Shown here: positions 1-13,005 of the stretch, piece after piece
Position numbering within the stretch: position 1 is the stretch's first letter
Layout: every line of letters starts with the position of its first letter
Source: Candidatus Acetothermia bacterium
Lineage (GTDB): Bacteria; Bipolaricaulota; Bipolaricaulia; UBA7950
Direction: 5' to 3'
NCBI GenBank assembly: GCA_022684035.1
Contig: JAJHSB010000033.1
Span: 1-56,920, forward strand
DNA: 56,920 nt
Translations under genes and position numbers: made by a program
The notes under the pieces: generated by a model
The model's input: the letters and a program-made list of their open reading frames with translations, nothing else
The model's database searches: none
Told to the model about the DNA's origin: nothing

Positions 1-451
1 AAATCAGCTCTGCCTCGGCGCGATGATTAGCAAATGTTACGAGGAATGCATCCAGTCCAACTACATAAATGGGGGTTTCTGTATGATGCCACACATGGAC
101 GCGCTGAATTATTCCCGCTGTATCTGTTTTCACGAACAACTTTATCGGTCCAGCCCACCCCACTTCTGTTCCGAGGAAGACGAATCCAGCCAACCGACGA
201 TCAGCGGTATGCAGCGTGTAATAGGCAAAATCATCCTTTGCAGCTGGAATAAATGTCAATGCAGTATCAGCGAGGAAATTTCGTAAATGAATCCGGTGCG
301 GGATAGTCTCGACCTGTTCTGGTATTGGTGCTGATTCTTCGCCGAAGATTCCTGCAAAATAAAGGCCGAGTGCAACTACCGCAATGACCACAACTGCCGA
401 TAATCCAATGATCAATTTGACTTTGTGATTAGCGGAACAACATGATGCCAT
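1..451 (-). CDS. FMN-binding domain membrane-anchored protein (RnfG/NqrC/NosR-like), 3' end outside window
   Basis: Not in ORF track. Hand translation from ATG at 451 (RBS GGAGG): MASCCSANHKVKLIIGLSAVVVIAVVALGLYF (TM)...GWAGPIKLFVKTDTAGIIQRVHVWHHTETP, resembling the RnfG/FMN_bind GYxGxI...HxETP segment. Confidence 0.75.
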   Translation of the reverse strand, partial: MASCCSANHKVKLIIGLSAVVVIAVVALGLYFAGIFGEESAPIPEQVETIPHRIHLRNFLADTALTFIPAAKDDFAYYTLHTADRRLAGFVFLGTEVGWAGPIKLFVKTDTAGIIQRVHVWHHTETPIYVVGLDAFLVTFANHRAEAELI

Positions 452-522
452 TTTGTTGTCACCTCCAAAGTTTTTATGGCAACTAAATTGTTTGGACAGC
501 CTGTTGTATTTATTTGACTAAC

Positions 523-581
523 GATGAGAGAAAGGCCGGCGACCAAAACTTGCACGATTGCTGCCGGCCATTCATCTCATC
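523..581. other. Intergenic stem-loop between SBP gene and FMN-binding gene
   Basis: GATGAG-A-GAA-A-GGCCGGC ... GCCGGCC-A-TTC-AT-CTCATC inverted repeat; no clean U-tract, so an mRNA-stabilising hairpin or weak terminator. Confidence 0.5.
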
Positions 582-618
582 TCCTTCAAGTAGGCAGAAA
601 GTGCTGTATTAGTCTTAA

Positions 619-1617
619 CTAACGTGCTACAATCCAGTCTACCTTCGCTTCCAGCTCCAAACATATGATGGCCTGTGTCGGAATGAAAACAAAGTTAAAG
701 TTATTTTCTTCCACTATTGCTGGCGCAGGACCACCAGGGAGAGCTGAAGCCTTATTGAATACTCTCGCAAACAACTCGGCTCCCTCCGGACTCATGATGA
801 TATCAGCCGGCCGGAGGTGATACTCAGTCGGATTATCTGGGATTACCAGAAGACCCGGTTTGGCAATCGCCCCTTCTTCAGGCCAAATCACCCCTACCTT
901 GCCATCTCTTACCCTTACGTCCTGTAGAGTAGAAATACCCACTGCCACCGTACCGTTCTTCACTGCTTCTGTAACATGTCCTTGGCTACCTCTGACTGCC
1001 GCAATAGCCATGAGTCGCGTGAAGTTTTCCGCTCCCAAGTGATAAAAGAGGGCCATCATTCCCCAAGTTCCAATGCAACCGGTAGTGGGAACGCCAATTA
1101 TTCGATCAAAATTGGCTAAGGCTTCCATTGTAGATGGTACATCGGCTCGTGCAATCAAAGCAGGGTTATATATGATGACATAAGCATTAACCCAGACTAA
1201 ATGCAACTCTCCGCGTGGATCAGCCAATTTTGCCAACTCCTCGCGAACTGGAAAGCGCCCGGGTAACTCGGCAATAAATGGCCGGGCCATTTCAAACTGC
1301 CGGTGAACCTCACGGTGATTATAAGAAAAGAGTGTTCCTCTCATAATTCTTCCTATCTCAAGTGCTCTCCCCAGGTAACGACGCAAATCTGCTGACTCAG
1401 TAGCAAAGAGTGTCACCGGTGTAGCAAACTGCTCTCTTACAAATGCCACCATGGTATCCCGAAAGCCTCCGGAACCAGTCATATGGATGTGCCCGACTGT
1501 CGGCTCCTCCGCGTGTGCGTATCCGACTACCAATGTTAGTATCAAACTGACTACCAATGTTAGTATCAAACTGAGTGCCATAACGATTGAAATTATCTTT
1601 ACAATTCTGTTTTTCAT
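619..1617 (-). CDS. ABC transporter substrate-binding protein (Fe3+/2-AEP-like, SBP_bac_6-like)
   Basis: Signal peptide ending AHA; motifs VIIYNPAL, VPSTMEAL, VIWPEEGAI, IIMSPEG typical of cluster D SBPs; RBS AGGAG. Confidence 0.7.
   Translation of the reverse strand: MKNRIVKIISIVMALSLILTLVVSLILTLVVGYAHAEEPTVGHIHMTGSGGFRDTMVAFVREQFATPVTLFATESADLRRYLGRALEIGRIMRGTLFSYNHREVHRQFEMARPFIAELPGRFPVREELAKLADPRGELHLVWVNAYVIIYNPALIARADVPSTMEALANFDRIIGVPTTGCIGTWGMMALFYHLGAENFTRLMAIAAVRGSQGHVTEAVKNGTVAVGISTLQDVRVRDGKVGVIWPEEGAIAKPGLLVIPDNPTEYHLRPADIIMSPEGAELFARVFNKASALPGGPAPAIVEENNFNFVFIPTQAIICLELEAKVDWIVAR
1525..1574. repeat. Exact 24-bp tandem duplication in SBP signal peptide (SLILTLVV x2)
   Basis: GACTACCAATGTTAGTATCAAACT twice in tandem. 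Confidence 0.95.
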
Positions 1618-1780
1618 TTGATTCTCTCCTTTGTGTTTAGATGTGAAACTTTTGTTAAAGTTAACATCGCAAATGTGTTAGCTCTTCTTTACTTAATCTG
1701 TCCTTAATTTAGCGCCTTTCTCTCACCTCCGTCTGGTTCTGTACCGGGGCGCAGCCATCAACCGAAGAGCTTGTTGCCTG

Positions 1781-1809
1781 AGTATACTTATGCGAACTGT
1801 TTGCAATAA
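1781..1809 (-). promoter_or_regulatory. Putative promoter (TTATTG-17-TATACT) with 7-1-7 operator TGCAAAC-A-GTTCGCA
   Basis: Palindrome at 1791-1805; the same motif occurs in the same register upstream of feoA (6489-6503). Confidence 0.6.
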
Positions 1810-1829
1810 ACAAGAGAAAAATTATTCGC

Positions 1830-2016
1830 CCGAGCACGAGAGATAACAGAGACCCTCAAAGACAATCTTACCTCTTAGGCACGACAATAAATTTTACCAT
1901 CATCGAGATGATTCTCTCCGAATAATCTCGATAAGCAGGGATCGTTGCTTGGCAACCCTCATCCTGATACTATTCAATGATCTACGTATGGTTTCTCGAT
2001 ATCCGGCTTCTTCCAT
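1830..2016 (-). pseudogene. fur: Degraded Fur-family regulator (N-terminal DNA-binding part)
   Basis: MEEAGYRETIRRSLNSIRMRVAKQRSLLIEIIR, then after a frameshift ENHLDDGKIYCRA*EVRLSL; matches the Fur pattern L...GxRxTxQRxxILE...HLxAxEIYxxA...xLSL. 3' limit approximate. Confidence 0.6.
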
Positions 2017-2047
2017 TGACTTGATATTACTAATGAAATTGATTAGT

Positions 2048-2076
2048 ATTATAAACTAAGGATTTAGGTTTGTCAA
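2048..2076 (-). promoter_or_regulatory. Consensus sigma70 promoter for fur remnant/SBP direction
   Basis: TTGACA (2076-2071), 17 bp, TATAAT (2053-2048). Confidence 0.8.
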
Positions 2077-2104
2077 TCCCATCCAAGCTTGTCTGGAGAA
2101 GGCA

Positions 2105-2133
2105 TTGACAGCTAAATCCTGCTGGATCAGAAT
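2105..2133 (+). promoter_or_regulatory. Putative divergent promoter for NAS-like operon
   Basis: TTGACA (2105-2110), 17 bp, CAGAAT (2128-2133). Confidence 0.55.
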
Positions 2134-2246
2134 AATTGCGTATCATCAATAGTAACAATTGGTCAAGTGAGGCATTCACGGAGATTGGATCTCCAATACG
2201 CTTGCGAAAACCGTAAGACGAAGATTCGAGGTTATTTTCGAAAGGA

Positions 2247-2822
2247 ATGAACTGGGTAGAAAAGATATGGACTGATAATATACTGATCAGGCAATTGGAG
2301 AAAGTGCTCTCACGCCTGCCCCCGTTGGCCTTCCTCTACTGCCGCCCTTACATCAGAGTCGTTAAGCAGGAGATCAGATTAGCATCCATTACGGATAGGG
2401 ATGTAGTAGTCAACATCGGCTGCGGGGCTGTTCCCTTTACCGCCATCTACCTGGCACGCTTGACTGGCGCCAGGGTTATTGCACTGGACAGGGATAGGGA
2501 AGCAGCCGAATGCGCTCGCAGATACATCAGGGCCAGTGGTCTTGCGGAAATCATAGAGGTTGTGTGGGGCGATGGGGCAGATGCGCCTCAGTACGAAGAT
2601 GCCACTGTGTGGATCGTTGCCCTCCAGGCCGCACCCAAAAGGGACATCCTGGAACACTTCTTGAAAAGCGCTCCCAAAGGGGCGCGCATCATGTTCCGCG
2701 AGCCGAGACCGAAGTTCGCTAATCAGTATGATCAATTGCCCCGTAGCGCCCAGCCTCAATCCGTGGCCAGCCACAACATGGTTACATTCGACAGAACGGT
2801 TCTGTTCACACAAAAGGCATAG
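2247..2822 (+). CDS. Nicotianamine-synthase-like class I SAM-dependent enzyme (short form)
   Basis: YxxxYxxVVKQE helix followed by VVNIGCGAVPFTAIYLA (NAS/CntL-type IGxGPxPxT), LDRD, VVWGDG, and FREP motifs. Confidence 0.7.
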   Translation: MNWVEKIWTDNILIRQLEKVLSRLPPLAFLYCRPYIRVVKQEIRLASITDRDVVVNIGCGAVPFTAIYLARLTGARVIALDRDREAAECARRYIRASGLAEIIEVVWGDGADAPQYEDATVWIVALQAAPKRDILEHFLKSAPKGARIMFREPRPKFANQYDQLPRSAQPQSVASHNMVTFDRTVLFTQKA

Positions 2823-2828
2823 AAGAAA

Positions 2829-3840
2829 GTGACACAAATCTCAGTAAGAAAGGGTATCCTCTGGATCGTGGCGATATTGGTGCTTGCCACAATTGTGCTG
2901 GCATCCGGCCTTGACGAGGTTGCCACTGCTCTAGTCCTATTCGATCCCCTGTGGTTAGTTGGGCTCAGTTTACTTCAACTACTGACCATATCCATGACTA
3001 CCCTCGCCTGGCATCTTGCAATCCGTGCCGCCGGCGGCAAAATCAGATTTGGAGAGACACTGAGCATCAACTTGGCCGGCTCCTTCATTGAGAGTGTTAC
3101 ACCATCCAGTAAGTTAGGTGGGGAGGTAGCTAAAATCCACCTCCTGCACCAACACGTCGGGTTGAGCTATCAGCAACTGGCTGCCGTCACTCTGGTCTCC
3201 AAACTGCTCACCCTCCTGCCGTTTCTGGCACTTGCCGGACTTTTCCTCGCCTGGGAGGCAGTCAAGGGGCAGATCGTTTTCCCAGCAGCCGTTGCCTTTC
3301 TGGCACTGAGCGTATTTACCGGGGCGCTGGCCTGGATCTGCCACGTTGAGAGAACAGCGGAGGAAGCCGTACCACGGACAGGTCACATATCAGGTGGAGT
3401 GTTGCATTTTGCTCCGCTTATTCGCCGAGTGTTTGCCTTTCTCAGACAGGCCAGACGAGAATCCAGTCATCTCCTTTCTCGGCGCAGGCGCCTCACTTTT
3501 CTGGCATTGATCTCCATCGTCTGGATCCTCTACCCGGTCAAGGTTCTGCTGGTGACACAGATGCTTGGTATGGAGGTGGAATTCGCAGATGTTGCCACTG
3601 CTACCTATGCGGCCTATCTGGTGAGCATGCTGCCGCTCCTTCCCCGGAGGACTGGGTTCTTTCGAGATAACCATGGCCTTACTGCTAAGCTCTATGGACG
3701 TGTCGTTTAGTGAGGGCCTGGCGGTAGCTCTTCTTGCTCGCCTGGTGACTTTCTGGCTGCCGCTTGGGCTCTCGGCTATAGCAGCCGGTCTGACGGCATT
3801 GAAGGTGAGGCGTGGTCATCAGCATACGGATCCTCTATGA
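2829..3840 (+). CDS. UPF0104 / lysylphosphatidylglycerol-synthase TM (MprF-type flippase) protein, +1 frameshift near 3642-3645
   Basis: Multi-TM, VTPSSKLGGE motif. Removing one C in CCCC restores LPGGLGSFE...ARLVTFWLP and a TGA at 3838-3840 overlapping the next ATG (ATGA). Confidence 0.8.
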
Positions 3841-4466
3841 ACAAGGAAGAAAGATCCGCAAGATATTCCCCCGAGCGGCGCTCAAACAGGCTACTTGCTC
3901 CGGCTAACAGCATCTTGAATTGGATCGAGAGCCTGGGAGCGCGAGGTCAGAGGTACGGCAAGTGGTACCGCGACAGATTTTACCACCGGCTGGTAGAGAG
4001 AGAACTGAAATCCGCCTGCTTGAAGCCTGGGGCGATGGTGCTTCATATCGGCTGTGGCCCTTTCCCCATGACCGCTCTTTATCTAGCGGAAATGGGATTT
4101 CGGGTTGTGGCAATCGATTATGGCTCGGCTGCGGTGCGCTCAGCCCGCGAGGTAGTTCGACGCTGGTTGCTGGATGAGCGTATTACTGTATGGGAGGCAG
4201 ACGGGAGCGAAATTGACTGCTCCCCGTTTGACGCGGTTTGGGTATCGTTAGTCGTAAACGACAAGCAGAGAATTGTGATCCGGGCACTGCAAACCTTGAG
4301 ACCCGGAGCGTGCGTGCTTTACCGCAACTACCGGGGGCCGCTCACATTGCTCTACCCCTGGCTTGCTCCAGATGACCTCGACCTTGAGTGTGAACACCGA
4401 TGTGTAACCCATGCTCTCGGCAAGGAGACGATCATTGTCTGGCGGAAACTCATAAGAACAGTGTGA
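3837..4466 (+). CDS. Second nicotianamine-synthase-like SAM-dependent enzyme (short form)
   Basis: YRDRFYHRLVERE, VLHIGCGPFPMTALYLA, AID, EADG, LYRN motifs; paralogous to 2247..2822. Confidence 0.7.
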   Translation: MNKEERSARYSPERRSNRLLAPANSILNWIESLGARGQRYGKWYRDRFYHRLVERELKSACLKPGAMVLHIGCGPFPMTALYLAEMGFRVVAIDYGSAAVRSAREVVRRWLLDERITVWEADGSEIDCSPFDAVWVSLVVNDKQRIVIRALQTLRPGACVLYRNYRGPLTLLYPWLAPDDLDLECEHRCVTHALGKETIIVWRKLIRTV

Positions 4467-6132
4467 ATGCTACGTTTAACATCCCTCCCATGATGAATGC
4501 AATTACTATCGTCGCCATGGCAATAACGACTGCATACCTCACCCCAAATTCCTTCATTAACACCGGGAGAACCGCAGCACAAGGGATGTAGAACAACGCA
4601 ACGATTGCACCCACAATCAGTTGCACCAGAGTTAAATCCAAACCGAGAAGGGCGGTAACAGCCAGCTCTCGCCGCACAATTCCCAAAATCAGCGAGACAC
4701 TCGCTTCAGCCGGCAGTCCCAACAGATCAACTACAATCGGGCGTAAGAATAGACCAATGTGGTAAAGTGCTCCGGATTCATAGAGCATTGCCGCAATAAA
4801 CACACCAAAAATAATCAGCGGTACCGCATCAAGAAGATATGATTTCAGGTGCATCCATACCTTTTTGGCAACCGAGGTGGCATTTGGAATGCGGTATGGC
4901 GGAATCTCCATCAGAAAAGAGGGTGTTGTGCCAGGAAGCATTCTGTTTAATGCCATTCCCACGATGAAGATAAACAGGAAGGCAATAAGGTAAACAAAGG
5001 CCAGGGCAGCGATTGATTTTTCCGCCAAAAGGGCAATAATTGCTCCGGTCTGGGCGGCACAGGGAATTGCCAGGCACATTAGGGCAACAACGATAATTCT
5101 CTCCCGCCGCGTTTCCAGCATCCTTGTCGACAAGATTCCGCCGATAGTGCACCCGAATCCAAGCAGGAAGGGTATAACCGCTCCCCCATGAACACCGCTC
5201 TTGTGAAACAGCGTATCCAGCATGCAGGCTAATCGCGGCAGGTAACCAGTATCCTCCAGTATCGCCAGGACGAGGTAAAACGCCAGTAAGTACGGCAAAA
5301 CTAGTGCGAGCGGCCAGCCAATACCATCGATGAGCACTCCAAAATGGCCGATCAATATCTCACGTATAAACCCCTCAGGAACAACTGCGGTAACAGCATC
5401 TCTTATGGGTGGGAAGATTAAAGTTTCAAAAAAGGGTAGCAAAATAAATTGCCTCAGCCCCATCCCAATCCCAATAACTGCCCCAAATGCCACTAGCGCA
5501 GCAATAATCGCAACTGGGATGCCGGTAGATGGCAGAATAGCCGCATCCTCTATTCTCTCTCGTAAGGTGTGATGACGGTGAGTTAAGGTTTGCACCTGGC
5601 GCACTATATTCCCGATCTCGCTCCATCTTTCATCTTCGGTGCCTTGATAGAGTTGTGATCTGGACTCTGGAATCCGTAGGACGAGCTCCTTAATTCCCTC
5701 ACCTGTTACCGCAACCGTAGGAACAACTGGAACGCCCAGCAGCTCTTCCAGCTTCTCTACATCGATTGTTACCCCCTTGTGCTTAGCTTCATCCCAGAGG
5801 TTAAGCGCCACAACCATCGGAATTTCTTGCTCCAGTAGCTCAAGTGTCAGGCGTAGATTCCGCTCCAGATGAGTGGCATCAATTACATTAATGACCACAT
5901 CACCCTCTTTGACCATCTCTACCGCTATTTCTTCCGCCTTGTTGGTGGGATCGAGCGTGTAAGCTCCTGGCACATCGATTATTTGTGCACTAAGACTCCC
6001 AAATTTTAAGGTGCCTTTTCTAAATGTAACTGTTGTTCCGGGATAATTAGAAGCGACAACATTGATGCCTGTTAGACGGGAAAAGAGAACGCTTTTGCCC
6101 ACATTGGGATTTCCCATCAAGAGTATTTTCAC
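4450..6132 (-). CDS. feoB: Ferrous iron transporter FeoB
   Basis: GNPNVGKS, NYPGTT, DVPG G-motifs; LEDTGYLPR, GFGC, IPC gate motifs. Confidence 0.95.
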   Translation of the reverse strand: MKILLMGNPNVGKSVLFSRLTGINVVASNYPGTTVTFRKGTLKFGSLSAQIIDVPGAYTLDPTNKAEEIAVEMVKEGDVVINVIDATHLERNLRLTLELLEQEIPMVVALNLWDEAKHKGVTIDVEKLEELLGVPVVPTVAVTGEGIKELVLRIPESRSQLYQGTEDERWSEIGNIVRQVQTLTHRHHTLRERIEDAAILPSTGIPVAIIAALVAFGAVIGIGMGLRQFILLPFFETLIFPPIRDAVTAVVPEGFIREILIGHFGVLIDGIGWPLALVLPYLLAFYLVLAILEDTGYLPRLACMLDTLFHKSGVHGGAVIPFLLGFGCTIGGILSTRMLETRRERIIVVALMCLAIPCAAQTGAIIALLAEKSIAALAFVYLIAFLFIFIVGMALNRMLPGTTPSFLMEIPPYRIPNATSVAKKVWMHLKSYLLDAVPLIIFGVFIAAMLYESGALYHIGLFLRPIVVDLLGLPAEASVSLILGIVRRELAVTALLGLDLTLVQLIVGAIVALFYIPCAAVLPVLMKEFGVRYAVVIAMATIVIAFIMGGMLNVAFTLFL

Positions 6133-6365
6133 GTTGGCAATTCCTCGACAAGAACCTTCATCGCCATTCCTTTGCCGATGGCAACCTTGGTTCTATCCAC
6201 TTCAACAACAACCGGACCGTTAAACGGCCCAGAACCAACCTTACGAATAGTCTGACCAACTCTGATACCCAGCGACGTAAGGCGTCTCTGGGAGCTGTAT
6301 CCTCCCTCTATCCGCTTGATCACTGCTGCTTTTCCGGTACCCAGTTCCAGTAATTTAGTCTCCAT
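6129..6365 (-). CDS. feoA: FeoA
   Basis: RRLTSLGIRVG...GPVVV...VAIG SH3-like FeoA; overlaps feoB start. Confidence 0.9.
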   Translation of the reverse strand: METKLLELGTGKAAVIKRIEGGYSSQRRLTSLGIRVGQTIRKVGSGPFNGPVVVEVDRTKVAIGKGMAMKVLVEELPT

Positions 6366-6477
6366 ATCCTACATCCATTGACTCCTTTGATAGATCAACT
6401 ACCAATAATCAGCTTCACGTTAAACTCAGTAATTACCAGTTAGGCCACTTCATATTTATGACACCAATAACCTTAAG

Positions 6478-6507
6478 GATAATAAATATGCAAACTGTTT
6501 TCAACAA
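6478..6507 (-). promoter_or_regulatory. feoAB promoter (TTGTTG-17-TATTAT) with 7-1-7 operator TGAAAAC-A-GTTTGCA
   Basis: Palindrome at 6489-6503, same motif and register as at 1791-1805. Confidence 0.6.
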
Positions 6508-6687
6508 GCATCGCAAAATTTGTGTAACTGCACAAGTGAATAGACTAAAAGTGGAAGACTAACAATTCCGGATAGACAACAACTTCGAATATATCGACCG
6601 CACAGTAATAATAAGAAGCACTCTTTAGTGAAATGATTTGTAGACCCTCTCTGTTTCGAGCATATTCTAAAGTGAAATTTTTGGCAC

Positions 6688-6715
6688 TTGACACAGGAGG
6701 TGAATATATTATAAT
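6688..6715 (+). promoter_or_regulatory. sigma70 promoter of hsp20
   Basis: TTGACA 6688-6693, 16 bp, TATAAT 6710-6715. Confidence 0.7.
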
Positions 6716-6719
6716 ATAA

Positions 6720-6746
6720 TTAGCAGTCAAGAGCTAAGATTGCTAA
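6720..6746 (+). promoter_or_regulatory. CIRCE element (HrcA operator)
   Basis: TTAGCAGTC-N9-GATTGCTAA vs consensus TTAGCACTC-N9-GAGTGCTAA, directly upstream of a small heat-shock gene. Confidence 0.85.
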
Positions 6747-6771
6747 TTGACAATATAAAAAGGAGGCTACA

Positions 6772-7221
6772 ATGAGAATTACAAGACTTCCAGCAATAGG
6801 ATCATTTGGGATTCACAGTTACCTGAGCCGCTTGTTGGATGAGTTAGTCAGTGACTTCACTGAGGTCGGGTTAGAAGTAGGTACCAAGTTTGGGGCCACC
6901 GATATCTACGAAAAAGATAAGAAGATCTACTTTGAAACCGAACTTCCAGGTGCAACCAAAGACGACATCGAACTCAAAGTCGAGGACGATAAACTACTCA
7001 TCAGTGGTACGATCAAACGGAGCGAAGAGGTGAAAGATGAGAATTACTTCCGCATCGGGCGCCGTTACGGGCAGTTCCAGCGGGTCTTTCCCCTCCCGTC
7101 GCAAGTCGGTGATCACAAAAAGATCAGCGCTAAATTCAAAGACGGAATCTTGCAGGTAGTCGTTCCTCTCCGCGATTCAATCAAAGAGAAGGCAGCGGCA
7201 ATCGATATCAAGATCGAGTAA
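6772..7221 (+). CDS. Hsp20/alpha-crystallin small heat shock protein
   Basis: TDIYE, ELPG, RRYGQFQRVFPLP, AKFKDGILQV motifs; RBS AGGAGG. Confidence 0.95.
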   Translation: MRITRLPAIGSFGIHSYLSRLLDELVSDFTEVGLEVGTKFGATDIYEKDKKIYFETELPGATKDDIELKVEDDKLLISGTIKRSEEVKDENYFRIGRRYGQFQRVFPLPSQVGDHKKISAKFKDGILQVVVPLRDSIKEKAAAIDIKIE

Positions 7222-7262
7222 CCACATAAGATTTAGGATTTACACCTAATCACACTTAGATA

Positions 7263-7300
7263 AAAGGGGCGAAGCCATTGGGCTCGCCCCTTCTTTTATT
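7263..7300 (+). terminator. Rho-independent terminator after hsp20
   Basis: AAGGGGCGAAGCC-ATTG-GGCTCGCCCCTT followed by CTTTTATT. Confidence 0.8.
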
Positions 7301-7439
7301 TGGGTTCTTCGTAGCTTGGAGTTTAGAAAGAGTTCATTTAGTTCATTGGGGCAGAAGAGGCTTATGGCTTATAGCCTGTAGGGGCACGGCACACAGAGAG
7401 ATTGAGAGGTTCACGGTTCACGGGTTAGAGCCAGAGTCC

Positions 7440-7554
7440 GTCATTGTGAGTCTCTGTGAAGCAATCCTGTTCCTTTAGCCTCCGTCGTTTGTTTTGTGCC
7501 TCAACGAGGATTTTCTGTTCGGGATTGCCACGAGTTCTCCGAACTCTCGTAATG
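7440..7554. repeat. Palindromic MITE-like element (GTCATTG.GAG..GAAGCAATC ... GATTGCCACG..CTCG.AATG family)
   Basis: Terminal inverted repeats. 7518-7554 nearly identical to 40708-40744; interior 7487-7527 is the reverse complement (with mismatches) of 40797-40837. Confidence 0.8.
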
Positions 7555-7749
7555 TTAGGAATTATCACGCCCGATCCGTAGACTAAAGCCACGTGTAAGA
7601 AAGCTATTTAGCGGGTATGATGTAAAATAGATATACGATATATTTGCAAAGCGGATCTATTATGCGAACTATAATTGAGTTTCCAAAGATGGTCGAATAA
7701 GTACGTGAAGCATTTGGTTCGGTTTGATTGCTGCAAAGAAGTTGGTTGA

Positions 7750-9369
7750 TTGATGAAAATACAGCGTTCTATCAGTATAGGAGGATGGATAGCGCTTGCG
7801 TTGGCGTTGAGCGCGGCTTTGTGGGCCAACAAAGAGCGAAACGCTTGGGAGAGAGAATATCGCGGTATCACTCTGGCAGTTCATTTTGATCAGCGGTCTT
7901 ATAACAGTAAGTCTCTTTCATTTACTGAATTGGCACAAGCGGGAATAGACAGCATTCTGCTTCCCACTTCAAAGAGTATCGCTGATATAGCAATTATTGC
8001 GGCTGAGATAAATGCCGCAGGTCTTTCTCTCTACCTCTTTGTCGATCACGCGCGGCAATCAGAGGAAGAGTGGCAATCGCTGATCAATCTGGTGCATCCG
8101 CAAATTATCATATTAGATTCCACTCTCCAGTTGCAAGATGGGATAAGCAGCCTTGCAGCGGTAGTTACTGATAAATCCCTACCAGACCAGTCTGCGATTC
8201 AACTGGGAATGATCGAATTTTCTGACTTAACTATCATCCAGTACCTGTGGTGTCAGGGATGGCGCGATGTCATCCGTTTCCATGAAATAACAATCGAAGA
8301 GCTGCTGCCAATGGAAGAGAGAGAGATAATCGCCCGATGGCGTCGCGCTGTGCGGGAACGAAATATCCGTGGCCTTATTCTCCAGCCACTTCCGCACCTA
8401 TCTTTAGCAGAGAACCTCGCCTATTTCGCCCAAGTACACTCAGTAGTAAGTGCGATGGGATTTCAATCGAGAGCGCCAATATCCCTGCCATCGCCGCAAA
8501 GTCCGCTCATTCCCTTCGTGATCGGTATTGGTGTAAGCGCATTGCTGCTCCTCATCGCCCTGAAGCTACAACCGCAAAGAGCAACTATTTACCTACTGGG
8601 AAGTATAATCATAATTGGATTTGCTTTTTTGCTTCCGCTCGATAGCGTCATTGCGCGACAGACGATCGCCCTGCTGATCGCCCTACTTATGCCTCCTTTT
8701 GCCATACTCCTGCTGCTGCCGCGATTAAGCAACCGCAAAGGTTGGCAAGCGGGGATAATGACGGTTGTTCTGTTCTCTCTTATCTCCTTAAGCGCAGGAT
8801 TACTCATCAGTGCTCTTTTAGCTTCGCCTGCTTTTCTCGTCAAGGTACATCAATTTCGCGGTGTAAAACTTGCTCTGTCTCTTCCGCTTATCTTTACTGC
8901 GATTATCTATTATCGCGATGGTGGTTTCAGTTTGTTTTACCAACCTTTATCCCGGTTGCGTCGACCGAGCAAGTTATTCTTTATTGCTGCACTAATAGTG
9001 GTATTAGCGATCGTGATTCTCCGCAGTGGTGCTTACGGCTTGATATATCTGGAATTTGAAATGGCTATCCGGCAATTATTGGAAGAGACGCTTTACGCGC
9101 GGCCGCGATTCAAGGAGTTTCTGTTCGGCCACCCACTCTTATTCCTCGCTGCTGCGAGTACAGTGAGTAGTTTTAAGAGCATCGCTGTCGTGCTGGGAAT
9201 GGTAGGACAAGTATCAATCATCAACACCTTTGCCCATGCCCATACACCGATTTATCTCTCGCTGTTGCGCACTGGAAATGGGTTATTATTAGGGCTTCTT
9301 GCCGGCGGAGTGGTATATCTCGGTATTAAGTACGGTAAAAAGATACTTATTTGGTGTCAAGGTCGGTAA
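7750..9369 (+). CDS. DUF5693-like integral membrane protein
   Basis: RAVRERNIR, FRGVKL, RPRFKEFLFGHP, GQVSIINTFAHAHTP motifs; large soluble N-domain plus many C-terminal TMs. Confidence 0.65.
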   Translation: MMKIQRSISIGGWIALALALSAALWANKERNAWEREYRGITLAVHFDQRSYNSKSLSFTELAQAGIDSILLPTSKSIADIAIIAAEINAAGLSLYLFVDHARQSEEEWQSLINLVHPQIIILDSTLQLQDGISSLAAVVTDKSLPDQSAIQLGMIEFSDLTIIQYLWCQGWRDVIRFHEITIEELLPMEEREIIARWRRAVRERNIRGLILQPLPHLSLAENLAYFAQVHSVVSAMGFQSRAPISLPSPQSPLIPFVIGIGVSALLLLIALKLQPQRATIYLLGSIIIIGFAFLLPLDSVIARQTIALLIALLMPPFAILLLLPRLSNRKGWQAGIMTVVLFSLISLSAGLLISALLASPAFLVKVHQFRGVKLALSLPLIFTAIIYYRDGGFSLFYQPLSRLRRPSKLFFIAALIVVLAIVILRSGAYGLIYLEFEMAIRQLLEETLYARPRFKEFLFGHPLLFLAAASTVSSFKSIAVVLGMVGQVSIINTFAHAHTPIYLSLLRTGNGLLLGLLAGGVVYLGIKYGKKILIWCQGR

Positions 9370-9481
9370 AGACGGGAAATTTTTAGGGTTATAGATCGCT
9401 ATTGACTTTTTCCTTATTTCAATAGAGAATAAAATGATTGGATATGATTTAATCTCTCGCAAAGATAATCCGGAGGAAGTG

Positions 9482-10918
9482 ATGGCACAGCAGCAACTGG
9501 ATAGTGCACAAATTAGCGATCTATGGCGCAAAGCACGCTCTCTGTTGAATGATCGTGTTCTTCAAGCATGCCTCCCGCACAACTCAAAGCACATTGCCCT
9601 GGGAGAAGATACTGTCAAGATCAGGGTGGATAGTGAATTTAAGAAAGAGTACTGCTATCAAAAACTGGCTAAATTAGAGAAGATAGTGGGAGAAATTTTT
9701 GGAAAACGCTATGTCATTATCACAGAACTGCCTTTGATCGAAGAACTCGATCAAGTAAAAGAGGAACCCAAACTGCATACCAAGTTATCTGTATTAGGAA
9801 AAGAAGAGAGACAAACAGAGAAGGAACAGAAGCCGTATACTAAGATAGCTGTATTAGGAATTGGAGATGGCGGGTTAAACGCGATCAACAGGATGAAAGA
9901 ACAAGGTCTCCGCGGCGTCACATTGATCGCACTCGACACCGACCGTCAAATCCTGAGTATCTCCTCAGCCGACAAGAAAGTACAAATGGGAGCGGAGCTC
10001 ACAGCTGGCAGAGGGACTGGGGGTGACCTCAAGAAAGGTGAATTAGCAACAGAAGAATCTCGCTGGGAAATCTCATCCCTGCTTGCAGGAATGGATCTTG
10101 TTTTTCTTGCCTGCGGCCTCGGTGGAGGAACAGGAACGAGTGCTACTCCGATGATCGCCCAGATTGCGAAGGAAGCAGGAGCATTGACAATCGGGGTAGT
10201 CACGCAGCCATTCTCATTTGAGGGGATGATTCGCCAACAGAGAGCTGAGCAAGGATTACTCAAATTGCGGCAGACTGCCGATGTAACGATTGCAATCTCC
10301 AATGATCGTTTACTAGAGACAGCTCCAAAAGGATTATCGATGATTCAAGCATTTAAGCTCGCTGACAGTGTTTTGCACCAAGGCGTACGTGGAATCTCTG
10401 ATTTAATAACGATTCCGGGAATCGTTAATCTTGATTTCGCCGACATCCGTAGTGTTCTCGCTGGTGCAGGAACAGCAATGATGGGAATAGGTGAGGCACA
10501 AGGAGAACAACGCGGTCTTACTGCAGCAAAGTTAGCATCTTCTAATCCACTACTTGACGGTGGAACGATCCGCGGAGCACAGAAATTAATCATGAATGTA
10601 ACCGGCGGCACCGATATGACTTTAGATGAGGTGACGCAAGCCGCTGACCTGATCCGTAAAGCAACTATATCTGAATGTGAAATCATCTTTGGTGCAGTGG
10701 TAGATGAACGACTGACAGGTCGTCTGAAAATTACGGTGATTGCTACCGCCTTTCAAGCGGTCACGGAAAAACCGCTGCGCACCGCCTACAAGAAGCGCGA
10801 GCGAATATCAACGACCAATCTGGAAGTTCCAACCTTCTTGCGCCGCCAACAGCAAGAAGAGAAAGAGACAAAGAAAGAGACAAAGAAAGAAATAAGAGGA
10901 CAGAATTTAAAAAGATGA
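9482..10918 (+). CDS. ftsZ: FtsZ with N-terminal DnaA-domain-I-like extension
   Basis: GLGGGTGTS tubulin signature, VTQPFSFEG, ISNDRL, NLDFADI (T7 loop), C-terminal LEVPTFLRR. Start at 9482 chosen for RBS GGAGG (ORF track starts 9434). About 120 aa precede the GTPase domain. Confidence 0.9.
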   Translation: MAQQQLDSAQISDLWRKARSLLNDRVLQACLPHNSKHIALGEDTVKIRVDSEFKKEYCYQKLAKLEKIVGEIFGKRYVIITELPLIEELDQVKEEPKLHTKLSVLGKEERQTEKEQKPYTKIAVLGIGDGGLNAINRMKEQGLRGVTLIALDTDRQILSISSADKKVQMGAELTAGRGTGGDLKKGELATEESRWEISSLLAGMDLVFLACGLGGGTGTSATPMIAQIAKEAGALTIGVVTQPFSFEGMIRQQRAEQGLLKLRQTADVTIAISNDRLLETAPKGLSMIQAFKLADSVLHQGVRGISDLITIPGIVNLDFADIRSVLAGAGTAMMGIGEAQGEQRGLTAAKLASSNPLLDGGTIRGAQKLIMNVTGGTDMTLDEVTQAADLIRKATISECEIIFGAVVDERLTGRLKITVIATAFQAVTEKPLRTAYKKRERISTTNLEVPTFLRRQQQEEKETKKETKKEIRGQNLKR

Positions 10919-11045
10919 ATGGGGAATGGTGAAGAGAAATCACTTCCCTTTGGCAACTATCGCCTTATCAAACCGTTGATATTCTCATTTACTATTGACT
11001 ACTTACTTAAGGTGGATAGATTTAAAGTCTGAAGGTGAAAGGCTA

Positions 11046-11077
11046 ACGTAGGGGTACGGCATGCCGTGCCCCTACGT
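11046..11077. repeat. GTAG-type REP palindrome
   Basis: ACGTAGGGGTACGGCATGCCGTGCCCCTACGT, near-perfect palindrome; half copy GTAGGGGCACGGCA at 7378-7391. Confidence 0.8.
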
Positions 11078-11214
11078 GTTGTTCAAAGAGCCAATGTGAC
11101 AATGCGAGTTGTTTAGTTATTTATCATAAAGTATAATTATATTGATTATAATCACATTACAGAATGATGATTATATTTCAGAAATAGACTGGTAATCTGT
11201 AAAAGCGATTTGCA

Positions 11215-13005
11215 GTGAGGAGAATTTTAATGTCAAAGTACCATATTGGAATTGATATCGGATCACTTACAATTAAAGTAGTTGTGCTGGATGATGCCGA
11301 TCAGGTACGGGCAAAGATTTATCGCCCTTCTCACGGATCACCGCTGCCCGTTGCCAAAGCAGCCTTAGAAGAATTATTCACCGAGATTGCGCCGGCAGAT
11401 ATTAATGGTTTTGTCGCCACGGGATCAGGAGGACGCAAGCTGGCACAGATATTGAAGATCAATCATATCAATGAATTAATTGCGCAAACAAAAGCGGTAC
11501 AACGGTATTACCCAAAAGTGCGTACAGTAATTGAAATCGGTGGACAAGATTCTAAACTTCTGCTTCTCGGCGAGGAAGGAGGTCAACTGATACTCCAAGA
11601 TTTCTCACTCAATACACAATGTGCTGCTGGTACCGGTTCTTTCCTGGAACAGCAGGCCCAGCGGCTCGAACTTACGATCGAGGAATTCTCTCATCGTGCT
11701 ACACAGGCAGAGAATCCACCCAATATCGCCGGACGGTGCGCTGTCTTTGCCAAGTCGGATATCATTCACCTCCAGCAGGTGGGAACACCGCTAAATGAGA
11801 TCTTGGCCGGCTTATGCTTCGCCTTGGCGCGTAATTTCCGCAGTGATATCGGACGGGGGAAAGAATTCGTCAAGCCGATTCTCTTTCAAGGTGGAGTCTC
11901 ACTTAATCAAGGAATGATCAAGGCATTTGAGAAGATTCTTGATCTTGAGCAAGGAGAATTGATTATCCCCGAACACAATGTTTTGATGGCAGCGCTCGGG
12001 GCGGTTATTATCGACAAAGAACGGCGTGCGCGTGAGAGTCGGCGGGGTCATACCAACAACGATCAATCACCGAATATCGCCGCCAATTATCTGCAATCTC
12101 TTACTGATGCAATCGCTGAGCAGACAAACTACATTCATACTCCCCATACAAAGTTATCGATGCCCATAAAAGTAGGTAACAATTACCGCATTGCGCGTAC
12201 GACCGCTAACGGTCAACTGTGCGCATACTTAGGTATAGATGTCGGCTCGATCAGTACTAAAGCGGTGGCGATCGATAAAGAAGGACGACTGATAGCGCGT
12301 GTTTATTTACGTACTTCTGGTGATCCATTGCAGGCGGTACAAAGATGTTTATCCAAATTGCACGAGGATGCAGCAACGATGCTGCGTAATGTGCGCGGGG
12401 TAGGTGTGACCGGCTCCGGACGGGAGTTGATCGGTAAATTCGTTGGCGCTGATATAATAAAAAACGAAATTACCGCACAGGTCCGCGCCGCTGTGGCTAT
12501 CGACCCGAGAGTGGATACGATAATTGAAATTGGTGGACAAGACTCAAAGTATATCCGTCTGGAAAACGGGATCGTCGTTGACTTTACGTTGAATAAAGTC
12601 TGCGCCGCAGGCACAGGATCATTCTTGGAAGAACAGGCAGCACGATTAGGAATCGCAATCGCGGACTTCAGTGCGTTAGCACTTAACAGTGATCAGCCGA
12701 ATCGATTGGGAGAACGGTGTACGGTCTTTATTGAATCCGACCTGATCCATCACCAGCAACAAGGTTCATCAAAGAATGATCTCGTTGCCGGACTGGCATA
12801 CTCAGTCGCTTATAATTATTTAAACCGGGTTGTGGGCGACAAATCAATTGGCGAGCACGTATTCTTTCAAGGCGGAGTAGCTGGAAATGACGCTGTTGTT
12901 GCCGCTTTCCGCAATCTGCTCGGTCGAGAGATAATAGTTCCGGAACACCATGAACTCACAGGAGCGTATGGTATTGCGTTGATAACGCAAGAGGAGATGA
13001 AATGA
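11215..13005 (+). CDS. Acyl-CoA dehydratase activase, two BadF/BadG/BcrA/BcrD ASKHA ATPase domains
   Basis: Duplicated GIDxGS, EIGGQDSK, CAAGTGSFLE, RCxVF, FQGGV motifs. Start may be ATG 11230. Confidence 0.9.
   Translation: MRRILMSKYHIGIDIGSLTIKVVVLDDADQVRAKIYRPSHGSPLPVAKAALEELFTEIAPADINGFVATGSGGRKLAQILKINHINELIAQTKAVQRYYPKVRTVIEIGGQDSKLLLLGEEGGQLILQDFSLNTQCAAGTGSFLEQQAQRLELTIEEFSHRATQAENPPNIAGRCAVFAKSDIIHLQQVGTPLNEILAGLCFALARNFRSDIGRGKEFVKPILFQGGVSLNQGMIKAFEKILDLEQGELIIPEHNVLMAALGAVIIDKERRARESRRGHTNNDQSPNIAANYLQSLTDAIAEQTNYIHTPHTKLSMPIKVGNNYRIARTTANGQLCAYLGIDVGSISTKAVAIDKEGRLIARVYLRTSGDPLQAVQRCLSKLHEDAATMLRNVRGVGVTGSGRELIGKFVGADIIKNEITAQVRAAVAIDPRVDTIIEIGGQDSKYIRLENGIVVDFTLNKVCAAGTGSFLEEQAARLGIAIADFSALALNSDQPNRLGERCTVFIESDLIHHQQQGSSKNDLVAGLAYSVAYNYLNRVVGDKSIGEHVFFQGGVAGNDAVVAAFRNLLGREIIVPEHHELTGAYGIALITQEEMK

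Follow-up and report, generated by a model that had tools for sequence, protein, structure and literature searches.

Gene content of the locus

We analyzed contig JAJHSB010000033.1 of Candidatus Acetothermia bacterium (assembly GCA_022684035.1) over positions 1–56,920 of the forward strand; this whole stretch of 56,920 nucleotides is referred to below as the window. Near its beginning, genes for two small SAM-dependent enzymes (P1 and P3) flank a gene for a membrane protein (FLIP) and are followed by genes of ferrous iron transport (Table 1). P1 and FLIP are separated by 6 bases (2823–2828), while feoB and feoA are convergent with P3, the 3′ ends of feoB and P3 overlapping by 17 bases. FeoB of the window consisted of the G-domain, Gate and FeoB_C, and together with FeoA it represents a canonical Feo set (TIGR00437 cut-off of 315.65 bits).

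Table 1. Features of the module locus in the window
Feature	Position	Strand	Evidence and remarks
P1, truncated NAS/CntL-like SAM-dependent enzyme, 191 aa	2247–2822	+	Pfam NAS, 29.1 bits; constant module member
FLIP, UPF0104/PplT (MprF flippase-domain) membrane protein, frameshifted	2829–3840	+	PF03706, TIGR00374
FLIP frame A, 293 aa, stop at 3708–3710	2829–3710	+	PF03706, 100.6 bits
FLIP frame B, conserved C-terminus (PGGLGSFE...)	3625–3840	+	PF03706, 41.0 bits
Single extra base in FLIP (CCCCGG vs CCGGG/CCTGG in orthologues)	3642–3647	+	DNA alignment with L002, L003 and L004
P3, truncated NAS/CntL-like enzyme, 209 aa, Feo-tied paralogue	3837–4466	+	Pfam NAS, 36.1 bits
FeoB, ferrous iron transporter	4450–6132	-	TIGR00437, 363.5 bits; FeoB_N, Gate, FeoB_C
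FeoA, small SH3-like FeoB partner	6129–6365	-	PF04023, 70.4 bits
fur gene remnant, N-terminal 37 residues only	1915–2025	-	tblastn with L002 Fur
Weak Fur-box-like site, divergent promoter region	2040–2054		3 mismatches to the 7-1-7 consensus
Solute-binding protein SBP_bac_6, module membership doubtful	619–1617	-	PF13343, 38.8 bits

A first-pass annotation had placed the three genes, with their 6-bp gap, in a metal-uptake island between a fur remnant, a solute-binding protein gene and feoAB. All of these elements were recovered: the solute-binding protein gene by its Pfam match, both feo genes by Pfam and NCBIfam profiles, and the fur remnant by its 54% identity over 37 aa to Fur of the related locus L002 (tblastn E-value of 1e-7 in a 7-kb search). 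The remnant was evident from tblastn only, as Pfam gave no FUR match in six small frames of the 1618–2246 spacer. The term "island" suits about 0.6–6.4 kb of the window but not the part from 9.4 kb onward, where the genes were housekeeping ones (FtsZ, FloA, sigma-70, LigA). SBP_bac_6 was absent from the gene families recurring among 76 related loci. Neither a riboswitch nor any other RNA family was detected by an Rfam scan of positions 1–12,000 at E ≤ 0.1.

FLIP scored above the curated cut-offs of PF03706 and TIGR00374 (79.8 bits) over the eight-helix domain, although it is split by a frameshift in the window. Frame A covered profile positions 1–263 of the 302 of PF03706 and ended 126 bases before P3, while the conserved C-terminus resumed in the other frame, which covered profile positions 258–300. 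The intact orthologue from locus L002 (742–1749, 335 aa, 153.9 bits with PF03706) aligned with frame A over residues 1–271 (69%) and with frame B over residues 270–329 (92%). In the DNA alignment, CTTCCCCGGAGG of the window stood against CTT-CCGGGAGG in L002 and L003 and CTC-CCTGGAGG in L004, i.e., the window had one extra base. The middle gene had previously been taken as a single open frame ending in an ATGA overlap with P3; the frameshift was overlooked there. Without reading through the frameshift there is no such overlap (3837–3840); as written, the gene stops earlier (Table 1). The frameshift may mark a genuine pseudogene or a homopolymer assembly error, both of which fit the window, and the local copy may therefore be inactive or mis-assembled.

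The assignment of the middle gene to the UPF0104/MprF-type flippase domain was thus upheld, and FLIP is a PplT/UPF0104 translocator domain, for which lipid translocation is predicted. The MprF equivalog profile gave 17.4 and 35.6 bits in the window and at most 61.8 bits in a fusion protein from L004 against a cut-off of 600 bits, and no aminoacyl-PG synthase domain was therefore assigned. In the sources consulted, the contexts of PF03706 studied so far all concern lipids: MprF, gpgSDF, hexSDF, and YbhN with ClsB (10.1101/2022.03.11.483950; PMC12713373). These sources credit only MprF of the PplT/UPF0104 family with an experimentally supported function (10.1101/2022.03.11.483950), give the flippase activity of GpgF as a prediction only (PMC12713373), and list "SAM-dependent methyltransferase" among rare fusion partners of PplT with no further comment (10.1101/2022.03.11.483950).

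P1 and P3 as relatives of NAS and CntL

P1 and P3 had 34% identity over 132 aa (E-value of 2e-16) and, judging by this alignment, are ancient paralogues. Both carry a helix motif (Y31..Y35..VV..E42 in P1 and Y44..Y49..LV..E56 in P3) and a GxGxxPxT motif (IGCGAVPFT and IGCGPFPMT, respectively). NAS (PF03059) was the best Pfam family for both, and both exceeded its gathering score of 27.1 bits (Table 1). The margin was narrow: P1 orthologues from L002 (23.9 bits) and L067 (26.0 bits) fell under the gathering score, while L002 P3 (43.7 bits), L012 (44.6 bits) and L004 (41.3 bits) were above it. None of the curated NCBIfam families corresponded to P1, to P3 or to the fusions described below; the best scores, 36 and 25.6 bits with the CntL equivalog (cut-off of 350 bits) and 38.7–42.5 bits with CpaM (cut-off of 180 bits), were far under the cut-offs.

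By profile and fold, the nearest solved relatives of P1 and P3 were MtNAS (PDB 3fpe, 3fpg, 3o31) and CntL (7c7m, 7c9m). Against PDB sequences, the P1-family profile (A1) gave E-values of 1.3e-16 for MtNAS and 2.3e-13 for CntL, followed by CbiT with 6.8e-9; the P3-family profile (A2) gave 1.1e-22 and 1.9e-19, followed by 1e-7. The N-terminal 90 profile positions alone matched seven PDB sequences, all of them MtNAS or CntL. The P1 model (pLDDT of 86.7) had its highest Foldseek TMq with MtNAS (0.72–0.77; 0.70 with CntL), while its top match by E-value was the RNA methyltransferase 5bxy (3.7e-12), level with MtNAS. For P3, ranks 1–4 were occupied by MtNAS throughout (TMq of 0.71–0.73). Atlas models of NAS-family clusters of 254–268 aa aligned over residues 1–191 with a TMq of 0.82–0.85.

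The likeness to MtNAS and CntL comprises the Rossmann core, GxGxxPxT, 'A..PK', 'YR/FR', and the helix region in which the catalytic Tyr lies (Y107 in MtNAS) together with a Glu aligned with E84 of CntL. Invariant residues were E18, Y31, Y35, E42, G58, G60, P63, T65, D81, K131 and R151 in 26 P1 sequences and E31, Y49, E56, G72, G74, P77 and R163 in 31 P3 sequences. The invariant P1 Y35 and P3 Y49 align with Y107 of MtNAS (chain residue 107 of 3fpg), by chain numbering the catalytic tyrosine. For AtNAS1, the catalytic tyrosine is given as Y106, with Y106F inactive (PMC10248798). The invariant Glu column (P1 E18, P3 E31) aligns with CntL E84, and the E84Q mutant chain of CntL (7c9k) scored 3.8–4.3 bits under the wild type with the A1 and A2 profiles. 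In MtNAS, where the catalytic glutamate is E81 (E77 in AtNAS1), the profile alignments placed a different Glu in this column, in two registers (E87 and E90), and the E81Q chain had no drop in score; the numbers E81 and E84 are those of the PDB titles.

P1 and P3 differ from MtNAS and CntL (about 260–280 aa) in size and in occurring as two paralogues per module locus. Their alignments begin at MtNAS residue 81–100 and CntL chain residue 72–76; the two-domain build of core NAS (about 250–280 aa) was not found, the first 60–80 N-terminal residues being missing, and the models contained only 2–3 N-terminal helices. The loss of these helices leaves the acceptor side open. Thus, P1 and P3 are assigned by profile and fold to the NAS/CntL superfamily as truncated members. 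This agrees with the first-pass annotation, which had described two NAS/CntL-like paralogues of about 200 aa, distinct from ordinary methyltransferases and devoid of the N-terminal part of NAS. A search of 1.84 billion cluster representatives gave about 140 sequences of the P1-type minimal NAS at E ≤ 1e-30.

Distribution, gene fusions and predicted iron regulation of the module

Related loci were collected with peptide patterns of the P1 family, so that all counts are conditional on the presence of P1 and its close relatives. The 76 loci obtained span 10 bacterial phyla and one archaeal phylum, the commonest gene order being P1-FLIP-P3-FeoA-FeoB. P1 was called in 75 loci, of which 47 contained FLIP, 45 P3, 49 FeoA and 50 FeoB; counting L067 in addition, FeoB was found in 51 of the 76. 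In 36 loci P1 was directly followed by FLIP on the same strand, and the largest class of these had a median gap of 12 nt. In 30 loci, termed complete, P1 was flanked by 4 kb or more on either side: FLIP, P3 and FeoB occurred together in 13 of them and at least one of these in 28. P1 was present without P3 in 11, FLIP was absent from 9, P1-FLIP stood without P3 or Feo in 4, and P1 (with or without P3) was accompanied by Feo but not by FLIP in 7. Thus, the association of the P1, FLIP, P3, FeoA and FeoB genes is kept across phyla. Lack of conservation of the triad, which the first-pass annotation had set as a refutation of its proposal, was not observed; at the same time, the notion of an obligatory heterodimeric synthase is not supported by the gene content, as some complete loci have P1 without P3.

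Beyond these five genes, no gene family occurred in more than 8 of the 76 loci (YibE/F in 8, Fur in 6, ABC ATPase in 6). We failed to find a recurring opine dehydrogenase, MFS/DMT exporter or chelate importer among the 76 loci, in line with the lack of the former two already remarked for the window. The module therefore differs from the cnt operon (CntKLM with exporter and importer): it is devoid of the CntM opine dehydrogenase, the CntK racemase and the MFS/DMT exporter, has a PF03706 protein and FeoAB as partners, shows no recurring Opp/Nik-type importer, and its enzymes lie far below the CntL cut-off. Importers adjoined some P1 or P1-FLIP genes, namely an Opu-type ABC transporter with an OpuAC binding protein (L011, L042) and CbiM-CbiQ-ABC (L055).

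Genera with natron-, alkali- or Serpentini- in their names appear in 10 of the 76 record titles, and many of the titles that name a genus refer to alkaliphiles; the module occurred mostly in alkali-loving anaerobes. Cultured, non-pathogenic carriers were Alkalispirochaeta alkalica DSM 8900, Fuchsiella alkaliacetigena Z-7100 and Serpentinicella sp. ANB-PHB4. A 111-base stretch of FLIP DNA was common to the window, Dehalococcoidia and Methanobacterium with about 88% mean column identity, which shows that the cluster as a whole has recently been transferred between bacteria and archaea.

Gene fusions connect every part of the module. P3-FeoA was encoded by 13 ORFs, FLIP-P3 by 3, and FLIP-P3-FeoA by 2, including one from the isolate A. 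alkalica DSM 8900. An exhaustive representative search yielded three library proteins joining a P1-type enzyme with FeoA: P1-P3-FeoA (P0072), FeoA-NAS (P0191) and NAS-FeoA (P0142). The single P1-P3-FeoA protein shows that both enzymes work together where both exist. Longer, fused forms of P1 were not found in a set of 5.8 billion proteins, a result rated as weak evidence by the search tool itself. In fusion loci with FeoA, no separate FeoA was called. FeoAB had been regarded as a mere neighbourhood of the triad; the frequency of FeoB at the loci and the fusions of FeoA to the module enzymes contradict this. Compared with the Feo system (FeoA, FeoB, FeoC), the module has canonical FeoA and FeoB, and elsewhere NAS-like enzymes and the flippase domain are joined to its FeoA in single proteins. 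A survey of Feo architectures mentions FeoA domains with an extra domain; the words methyltransferase, nicotianamine and flippase do not occur in it (PMC8749426).

When up to 2 mismatches were allowed, 14 of 93 regions upstream of module genes contained a Fur-box-like site vs 3 of 237 for the remaining genes of these loci (Fisher p of 2.9e-6), and sites with at most 3 mismatches preceded P1 in 18 of 27 cases; a single 7-1-7 consensus was used, while Fur boxes vary between phyla. The site of the window overlaps promoter-like hexamers. In the window, 10 sites with 3 mismatches were counted vs 3.8 expected; the Fur box of the window taken alone was not significant and was rejected as evidence, the enrichment being significant only across loci. 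An intact Fur gene was present in 6 related loci (PF01475, 119 bits, for the ORF of L002).

Possible function and comparison with known systems

The module probably helps its carriers to take up iron. The reading we prefer, tentatively, is a five-part, iron-regulated accessory machine of Feo building a lipid-anchored nicotianamine-like ligand. The FeoA domain would tether P1 and P3 next to FeoB at the cytoplasmic face of the membrane. P1 and P3 would each in turn transfer the 3-amino-3-carboxypropyl group of SAM onto an amine with the release of MTA, and sequential transfers would build a nicotianamine-like polyamino-carboxylate ligand at this face. The acceptor would most likely be the amine of a PE- or PS-type lipid head group. 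FLIP would carry the product to the outer face, and the chelator would stay anchored around FeoB and pass Fe(II) on in alkaline anoxic habitats poor in free Fe(II). Slightly more doubtful is the particular scheme in which the two mini-NAS add a first and then a second aminocarboxypropyl group to a PE/PS-type amine and the flipped 'lipo-nicotianamine' feeds FeoB in alkaliphilic anaerobes. A metallophore on the one hand and lipid head-group modification with flipping on the other, set as alternatives by the first-pass annotation, may be one and the same.

The kinship to NAS and CntL, the catalytic residues, the conservation, the fusions, the enrichment of Fur boxes, the lipid context of PF03706 and the ecology of the carriers all argue for the lipid-anchored ligand. 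The lack of a recurring importer for a soluble chelate, the open acceptor side of the enzymes and the FLIP-P3 fusions, which keep the domain order of MprF (membrane translocator, then cytoplasmic enzyme), speak for a lipid carrier. However, the known acceptors of the NAS family are all soluble amino acids, and no NAS-type enzyme is known to act on a lipid; both points count against this reading. The narrow PF03059 scores, the tie with 5bxy, the E81Q chain without a drop in score, and the complete loci without FLIP or with P1-FLIP alone likewise weigh against it.

Precedents exist for separate elements of the lipid-anchored ligand. In the synthesis of the betaine lipid DGTS, BtaA transfers the aminocarboxypropyl group of SAM onto a lipid, but it belongs to another protein family, and the homoserine lipid it makes is ether-linked and not known to act on metals. 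Mycobactin, a lipophilic envelope-bound siderophore, is a precedent for a chelator kept in the envelope, although it is a non-ribosomal peptide/polyketide product and not a modified phospholipid. MprF carries its own aminoacyl-PG synthase domain, which is absent from the module, where the partner enzyme is SAM-dependent and not tRNA-dependent. The operons gpgSDF of Pseudomonas aeruginosa and hexSDF of Clostridioides difficile resemble the module in combining a UPF0104 flippase-like protein with two cytoplasmic enzymes that modify a lipid head group in successive steps; however, one of these enzymes is a glycosyltransferase and the other a deacetylase, the operons are not linked to metal transport, and the role of the flippase is predicted (PMC12713373).

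Nearly as likely as the lipid-anchored ligand, and likewise doubtful, is a soluble metallophore: a free thermonicotianamine-like chelator of Fe(II) or other metals made from an amino acid and SAM, with FLIP recruited as the exporter and the metal recovered via FeoB or another importer. The characterized NAS/CntL enzymes all make soluble chelators (PMC10248798; 10.1101/641969), MtNAS alone putting two aminobutyrate units on glutamate (title of PDB 3fpe; PMC10248798). The metal or zwitterion importers beside P1 or P1-FLIP in L011, L042 and L055 fit a soluble, re-imported ligand better, and the Fur-box enrichment and Feo linkage suit any iron chelator. At the same time, export of a soluble compound is not known for any PF03706 protein (10.1101/2022.03.11.483950). 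No chelate importer recurred at the loci, FeoB being known as an ion transporter; tethering of the synthase to FeoB by FeoA would bring no evident benefit if the product is secreted; and the N-terminal helices that close the chamber for small substrates in MtNAS and CntL are missing from P1 and P3.

Improbable is a remodelling of the cell surface at high pH, in which P1 and P3 would alkylate lipid head groups (with aminocarboxypropyl or methyl), FLIP would flip them and the surface charge would change, the Feo link reflecting a lipid need of FeoB. It accords with the lipid context of PF03706 (10.1101/2022.03.11.483950; PMC12713373), with the skew to alkaliphiles and with P1-FLIP lacking Feo in some complete loci; from general chemistry, a C–N alkyl link would outlast alkaline pH, while the aminoacyl esters of MprF are base-labile. 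However, it leaves the FeoA fusions (at least 18 proteins), the Fur-box enrichment and the CbiMQO neighbour unexplained, and the enzymes are much closer to NAS and CntL than to lipid methyltransferases.

Slightly less probable still is a ligand that would stay in the cytoplasm, take Fe(II) at the exit of FeoB and buffer it at alkaline cytoplasmic pH, with a separate role for FLIP. FeoA is a protein of the cytoplasm whose target is the cytosolic domain of FeoB (PMC8980893), the FeoA fusions place P3 at this side, and the complete loci with Feo but no FLIP agree with it. Against it stand the position of FLIP directly after P1 and its fusion to P3 in 5 ORFs, which make it very likely that the substrate of FLIP is the product of the enzymes. 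That P1 and P3 are ordinary methyltransferases, or modifiers of FeoA, FeoB or another macromolecule sharing only fold ancestry with NAS, is very improbable: generic methyltransferase Pfam families come close behind NAS, 5bxy ties with MtNAS for P1 and the database names are all 'methyltransferase', but in the profile searches NAS and CntL were ahead of every methyltransferase by 8–15 orders of magnitude, and the N-terminal helices bearing the catalytic Tyr and the invariant Glu are confined to NAS/CntL (7/7 PDB matches).

We found no description of the module in the literature on NAS, CntL, FeoA/FeoB fusions, UPF0104/MprF flippases, aminocarboxypropyl lipids and iron in alkaliphiles; the gene module is apparently undescribed so far. 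At pH 9–11, Fe(II) is bound up in carbonate, sulfide and hydroxide phases. The module bears on the supply of Fe(II) to FeoB, on the role of FeoA and on how anaerobes find iron at such pH, and it physically ties a chelator-type biosynthetic enzyme to FeoA/FeoB via gene fusion. With it, the NAS family comes to include a minimal form of about 190 aa; the module also adds a testable system for PplT/UPF0104, a family present in most prokaryotic phyla. If 'lipo-nicotianamine' is indeed formed, it would represent a new class of membrane lipids, a metallophore that is never released would be a new mode of metal acquisition, and an accessory enzyme linked to FeoA would have its first defined job.

Gene triad and the frame break in FLIP

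Three tightly packed genes (window ORFs) encoded two shortened NAS/CntL-like enzymes, P1 and P3, and between them FLIP, a flippase-like membrane protein of the PF03706/TIGR00374 family (Pfam, NCBIfam). P1 and P3 were paralogues (34% identity over 132 aa, E 2e-16), and FLIP started 6 bases 3' of P1. Genes feoB and feoA were located downstream of the triad in convergent orientation; on the 5' side, a 630-base spacer with an N-terminal fur remnant was followed by a solute-binding protein gene. The G+C content was 55-56% in the triad versus 43-49% in the flanks. The nearest database proteins in the P1 and P3 searches (95% and 90% identity) were labelled Candidatus Acetothermia bacterium. Housekeeping genes filled the window from 9.4 kb on.

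The first-pass annotation had described three genes in this region. The genes are real, but FLIP had been read straight through, and a break in its frame was overlooked: the conserved C-terminus continued in a second frame, the TGA of which overlapped the ATG of P3. Residues up to 271 of intact 335-aa orthologues matched the first frame and those from 270 onwards the second, and DNA alignment with three intact orthologues revealed one surplus base in the window. Since residues past the break were still 92% identical to the orthologue, the surplus base appears to be either a recent change or an assembly error.

A partial gene running off the window start and adjoining the solute-binding protein gene encoded a membrane-anchored protein with a weak FMN_bind/RnfG-like domain (Pfam 18.9 bits; TIGR01947 22 bits). 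An FtsZ homologue extended by ~135 residues at its N-terminus and, immediately 5' of it, a DUF5693 membrane protein (287 bits) had no relation to the triad or the feo genes. Perfect 12-of-12 sigma-70-type promoter matches preceded the Hsp20 gene and the fur remnant, the latter overlapping a Fur-box-like site.

Coordinates of features in the window and in related loci from the genome scan (L handles)
Feature	Position	Strand	Remark
Triad	2247-4466	+	three genes
P1	2247-2822	+	191 aa
FLIP, first frame	2829-3710	+	
FLIP, second frame	to 3840	+	
Surplus base in FLIP	3642-3647		
FLIP stretch compared between phyla	3590-3700		111 bases
P3	3837-4466	+	209 aa
Fur-box-like site	2040-2054		3 mismatches
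Sigma-70-type match	2048-2076	-	before fur remnant
Sigma-70-type match	6688-6715	+	before Hsp20 gene
Hsp20 gene	6772-7221		
Partial gene	2-451	-	FMN_bind/RnfG-like
DUF5693 protein	7750-9369	+	
FtsZ homologue	9434-10918	+	
P3-like subgroup 1	L006:7403-8014; L016:1449-2024; L018:2224-2844		upstream of P1
P3-like subgroup 2	L066:4303-4863; L072:7349-7939	-	on opposite strand together with FLIP
YibE/F-like protein	L007:7798-8964; L012:8613-9734		directly 3' of FeoB
P1 or P1-FLIP beside other uptake systems	L011:546-7745; L042:2787-6154; L055:5680-10802		Feo-less loci

Kinship of P1 and P3 with nicotianamine synthase

Nicotianamine synthase (NAS) was the top Pfam family for both enzymes (P1 29.1 and P3 36.1 bits; gathering score 27.1), with generic methyltransferase families close behind. 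In single-sequence PDB searches, both matched thermonicotianamine synthase (MtNAS) first and the staphylopine enzyme CntL second. The same order was obtained with profile A1, built from 26 P1 sequences (MtNAS 1.3e-16, CntL 2.3e-13, next CbiT 6.8e-9, ordinary methyltransferases at 1e-5 or worse), and with profile A2, built from 31 P3 sequences (1.1e-22, 1.9e-19, next sequence 1e-7). All seven matches at E<=0.01 to profile A4, covering the first 90 positions of P3, were MtNAS or CntL. AlphaFold models were confident (pLDDT 86.7 for P1 and 84.5 for P3). In Foldseek searches, MtNAS occupied ranks 1-4 for P3 and gave the highest TM-scores for P1 (0.72-0.77), yet an RNA methyltransferase tied with it on E-value. 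The entire P1 aligned with Atlas models of full-length NAS-family clusters (TMq 0.82-0.85).

Beyond the generic SAM fold, P1 and P3 shared with MtNAS and CntL the motifs GxGxxPxT, 'A..PK' and 'YR/FR', and a helix with two tyrosines and a glutamate before GxGxxPxT. P1 Y35 and P3 Y49 aligned with MtNAS Y107. The column aligned to CntL E84 held the invariant glutamate (P1 E18, P3 E31), and the CntL E84Q mutant chain scored 4.3 and 3.8 bits below the wild type against the profiles; around MtNAS E81, the profile alignments gave two different registers. The Arabidopsis NAS1 equivalents, E77 and Y106, are described as essential for activity (PMC10248798). Since these motifs are kept and 60-80 residues are gone from the start of the NAS N-terminal domain, P1 and P3 are minimal-form members of the NAS/CntL superfamily.

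One branch of the family tree separated P1 from P3 (SH-aLRT 94; 76 and 46 rows). The full set of conserved residues was kept in both (26 and 31 sequences), and judging from sequence, neither has the look of an inactive partner. Membership in the curated CntL family was ruled out (36 and 25.6 bits against the NCBIfam cut-off of 350), and NCBIfam contained no curated model covering P1 or P3. Two divergent P3-like subgroups were also found: the first (L006, L016, L018) had a shortened glycine motif, HIG-GGIPYTA; the second (L066, L072) had long branches and lacked the C-terminal part.

Linkage of the triad to FeoA and FeoB by shared loci and gene fusions

Screening a single genome from each species with the P1 profile yielded 76 loci, whose ORFs were called and searched with profiles from the five window proteins. 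L067 was dropped from the ORF set (ambiguous bases), leaving 75 loci with a called P1; 30 loci with at least 4 kb on both sides of P1 were treated as complete. With many contigs short, and conditional on the presence of P1 and the peptide patterns used, FLIP was found in 47 of the 75 loci (21 of the 30 complete ones), P3 in 45 (19), FeoA in 49 (21), and FeoB in 50 (22). In the commonest arrangement, P1-FLIP-P3-FeoA-FeoB on a single strand, neighbouring genes overlapped or lay a few bases apart. The triad makes up one half of a bigger unit (the module), which also includes FeoA and FeoB. The initial interpretation, either a minimal metallophore synthase with an unusual exporter or a lipid head-group modification and flipping system, was partly right and too narrow.

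FLIP, P3 and FeoB were all present in 13/30 complete loci, all absent from two (L055, L059), and P1-FLIP stood alone in four. P3 tracked Feo: FeoB occurred in 17/19 complete loci with P3 versus 5/11 without it. No further gene family recurred in more than 8/76 loci (YibE/F 8, Fur 6, ABC ATPase 6); therefore, opine dehydrogenase, racemase and a classical exporter are not part of the unit. The YibE/F-like membrane protein (268-281 bits for PF07907) might also belong to the module as an optional component.

Single-ORF fusions comprised P3-FeoA (13 loci), FLIP-P3 (3 loci) and FLIP-P3-FeoA (L074), with Pfam confirmation for L012 (NAS + FeoA), L004 (PF03706 + NAS) and L074. L067, from the isolate Alkalispirochaeta alkalica DSM 8900, encoded an ORF extending from PF03706 to FeoA with FeoB directly after it (Pfam); its middle part was 40% identical to the window P3. 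An exhaustive search of representatives added the library proteins P0072 (P1-P3-FeoA), P0191 (FeoA-NAS) and P0142 (NAS-FeoA). Thus, each component shares at least one natural fusion with another component. In loci carrying the P3-FeoA fusion, ORF calling gave no separate FeoA, so the fused domain is probably the working FeoA.

Fur-box-like sites (7-1-7 consensus) were enriched upstream of module genes: 14/93 regions versus 3/237 for other genes of the same loci at <=2 mismatches (Fisher p 2.9e-6), and 27/93 versus 14/237 at <=3 mismatches (p 7.7e-8). Of these 27 sites, 18 preceded P1. In a separate scan, restricted to the 250 bases 5' of the module gene that comes first in each locus, most listed two-mismatch sites lay 40-120 bases upstream of that gene. 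The site in the window proves nothing alone.

The 76 loci belonged to ten bacterial phyla and one archaeal phylum, two more bacterial loci being without an assigned phylum. Natron-, alkali- or Serpentini- genera were named in ten record titles, including the cultured Fuchsiella alkaliacetigena, Serpentinicella, Candidatus Methanocrinis natronophilus and Alkalispirochaeta alkalica; Candidatus Contubernalis alkaliaceticus was among the protein matches in the database search. With 140 representatives at E<=1e-30 and 784 at E<=1e-10 in a set of 1.84 billion, the family is a small one. P1 and P3 of the window each grouped with Dehalococcoidia, Methanobacterium and a Firmicutes MAG in a small clade with full support, joined in the case of P1 by a Planctomycetia sequence. 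Mean column identity of the FLIP DNA stretch was ~88% between the Acetothermia-like window, two Dehalococcoidia and one Methanobacterium (L002, L003, L004). These clades and this identity, together with the raised G+C content of the triad, point to a recent transfer of the whole cluster across phyla and domains.

Possible product of the module

We infer that, like NAS and CntL, P1 and P3 would move the aminocarboxypropyl group of SAM onto an amine and, where P1 and P3 co-occur, would act in series to form a nicotianamine-like polyamino-carboxylate. The FeoA domain would tie these reactions to the cytoplasmic face of FeoB; transport of the product to the outer face would fall to FLIP.

Tentatively, the product may be a lipid-anchored chelator, built on a lipid head group. 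A lipid acceptor is favoured because no free-chelate importer recurs in the loci, because tethering to FeoB suits a membrane-retained product, and because loss of the N-terminal helices opens the acceptor side. Alkaline pH, which hydrolyses MprF-type aminoacyl esters, would leave a C-N alkyl link intact. To our knowledge, the known NAS-family acceptors are free amino acids, which counts against a lipid, and the absence of FLIP from 9/30 complete loci weakens this reading as well. A lipid acceptor is further favoured by the FLIP-P3 fusion, which repeats the domain order of MprF, and by the studied PF03706 contexts, all of lipid synthesis in the accessible parts of the sources (MprF, gpgSDF, hexSDF, and YbhN with ClsB; 10.1101/2022.03.11.483950, PMC12713373); the gpgSDF and hexSDF operons likewise combine two cytoplasmic enzymes with a UPF0104 protein (PMC12713373).

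A soluble metallophore is only slightly less probable as the product. The position of a few P1 or P1-FLIP genes beside Opu-type ABC importers (L011, L042) or CbiMQO (L055) fits such a ligand and counts against the lipid reading. In these Feo-less loci, the Opu-type transporter was accompanied by an OpuAC binding protein, a BpsA-type branched polyamine synthase was also encoded upstream in L011, and MatE and CbiM-CbiQ-ABC were the neighbours in L055. Lower probabilities fall to a change of surface charge that involves no chelation, to an Fe(II) acceptor inside the cell, and to simple methyl transfer.

In the full-text literature searched, we found no paper tying NAS-like enzymes to Feo or to a PF03706 protein; an earlier mention elsewhere is possible. 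The available text of a Feo architecture survey states that FeoA sometimes occurs with 'an additional domain'; the terms methyltransferase, nicotianamine and flippase are absent from it (PMC8749426). In the available part of the PplT preprint, a SAM-dependent methyltransferase is named, with no discussion, as one of the rare fusion partners (10.1101/2022.03.11.483950), and that of a CntLM diversity study mentions neither Feo nor archaea (10.1101/641969). The families of all parts are known; their combination was found nowhere in the literature searched. Should the product prove to be a lipid, the finding would be new in kind. Cultured, non-pathogenic carriers make bench work on the module possible, and the finding is worth it.
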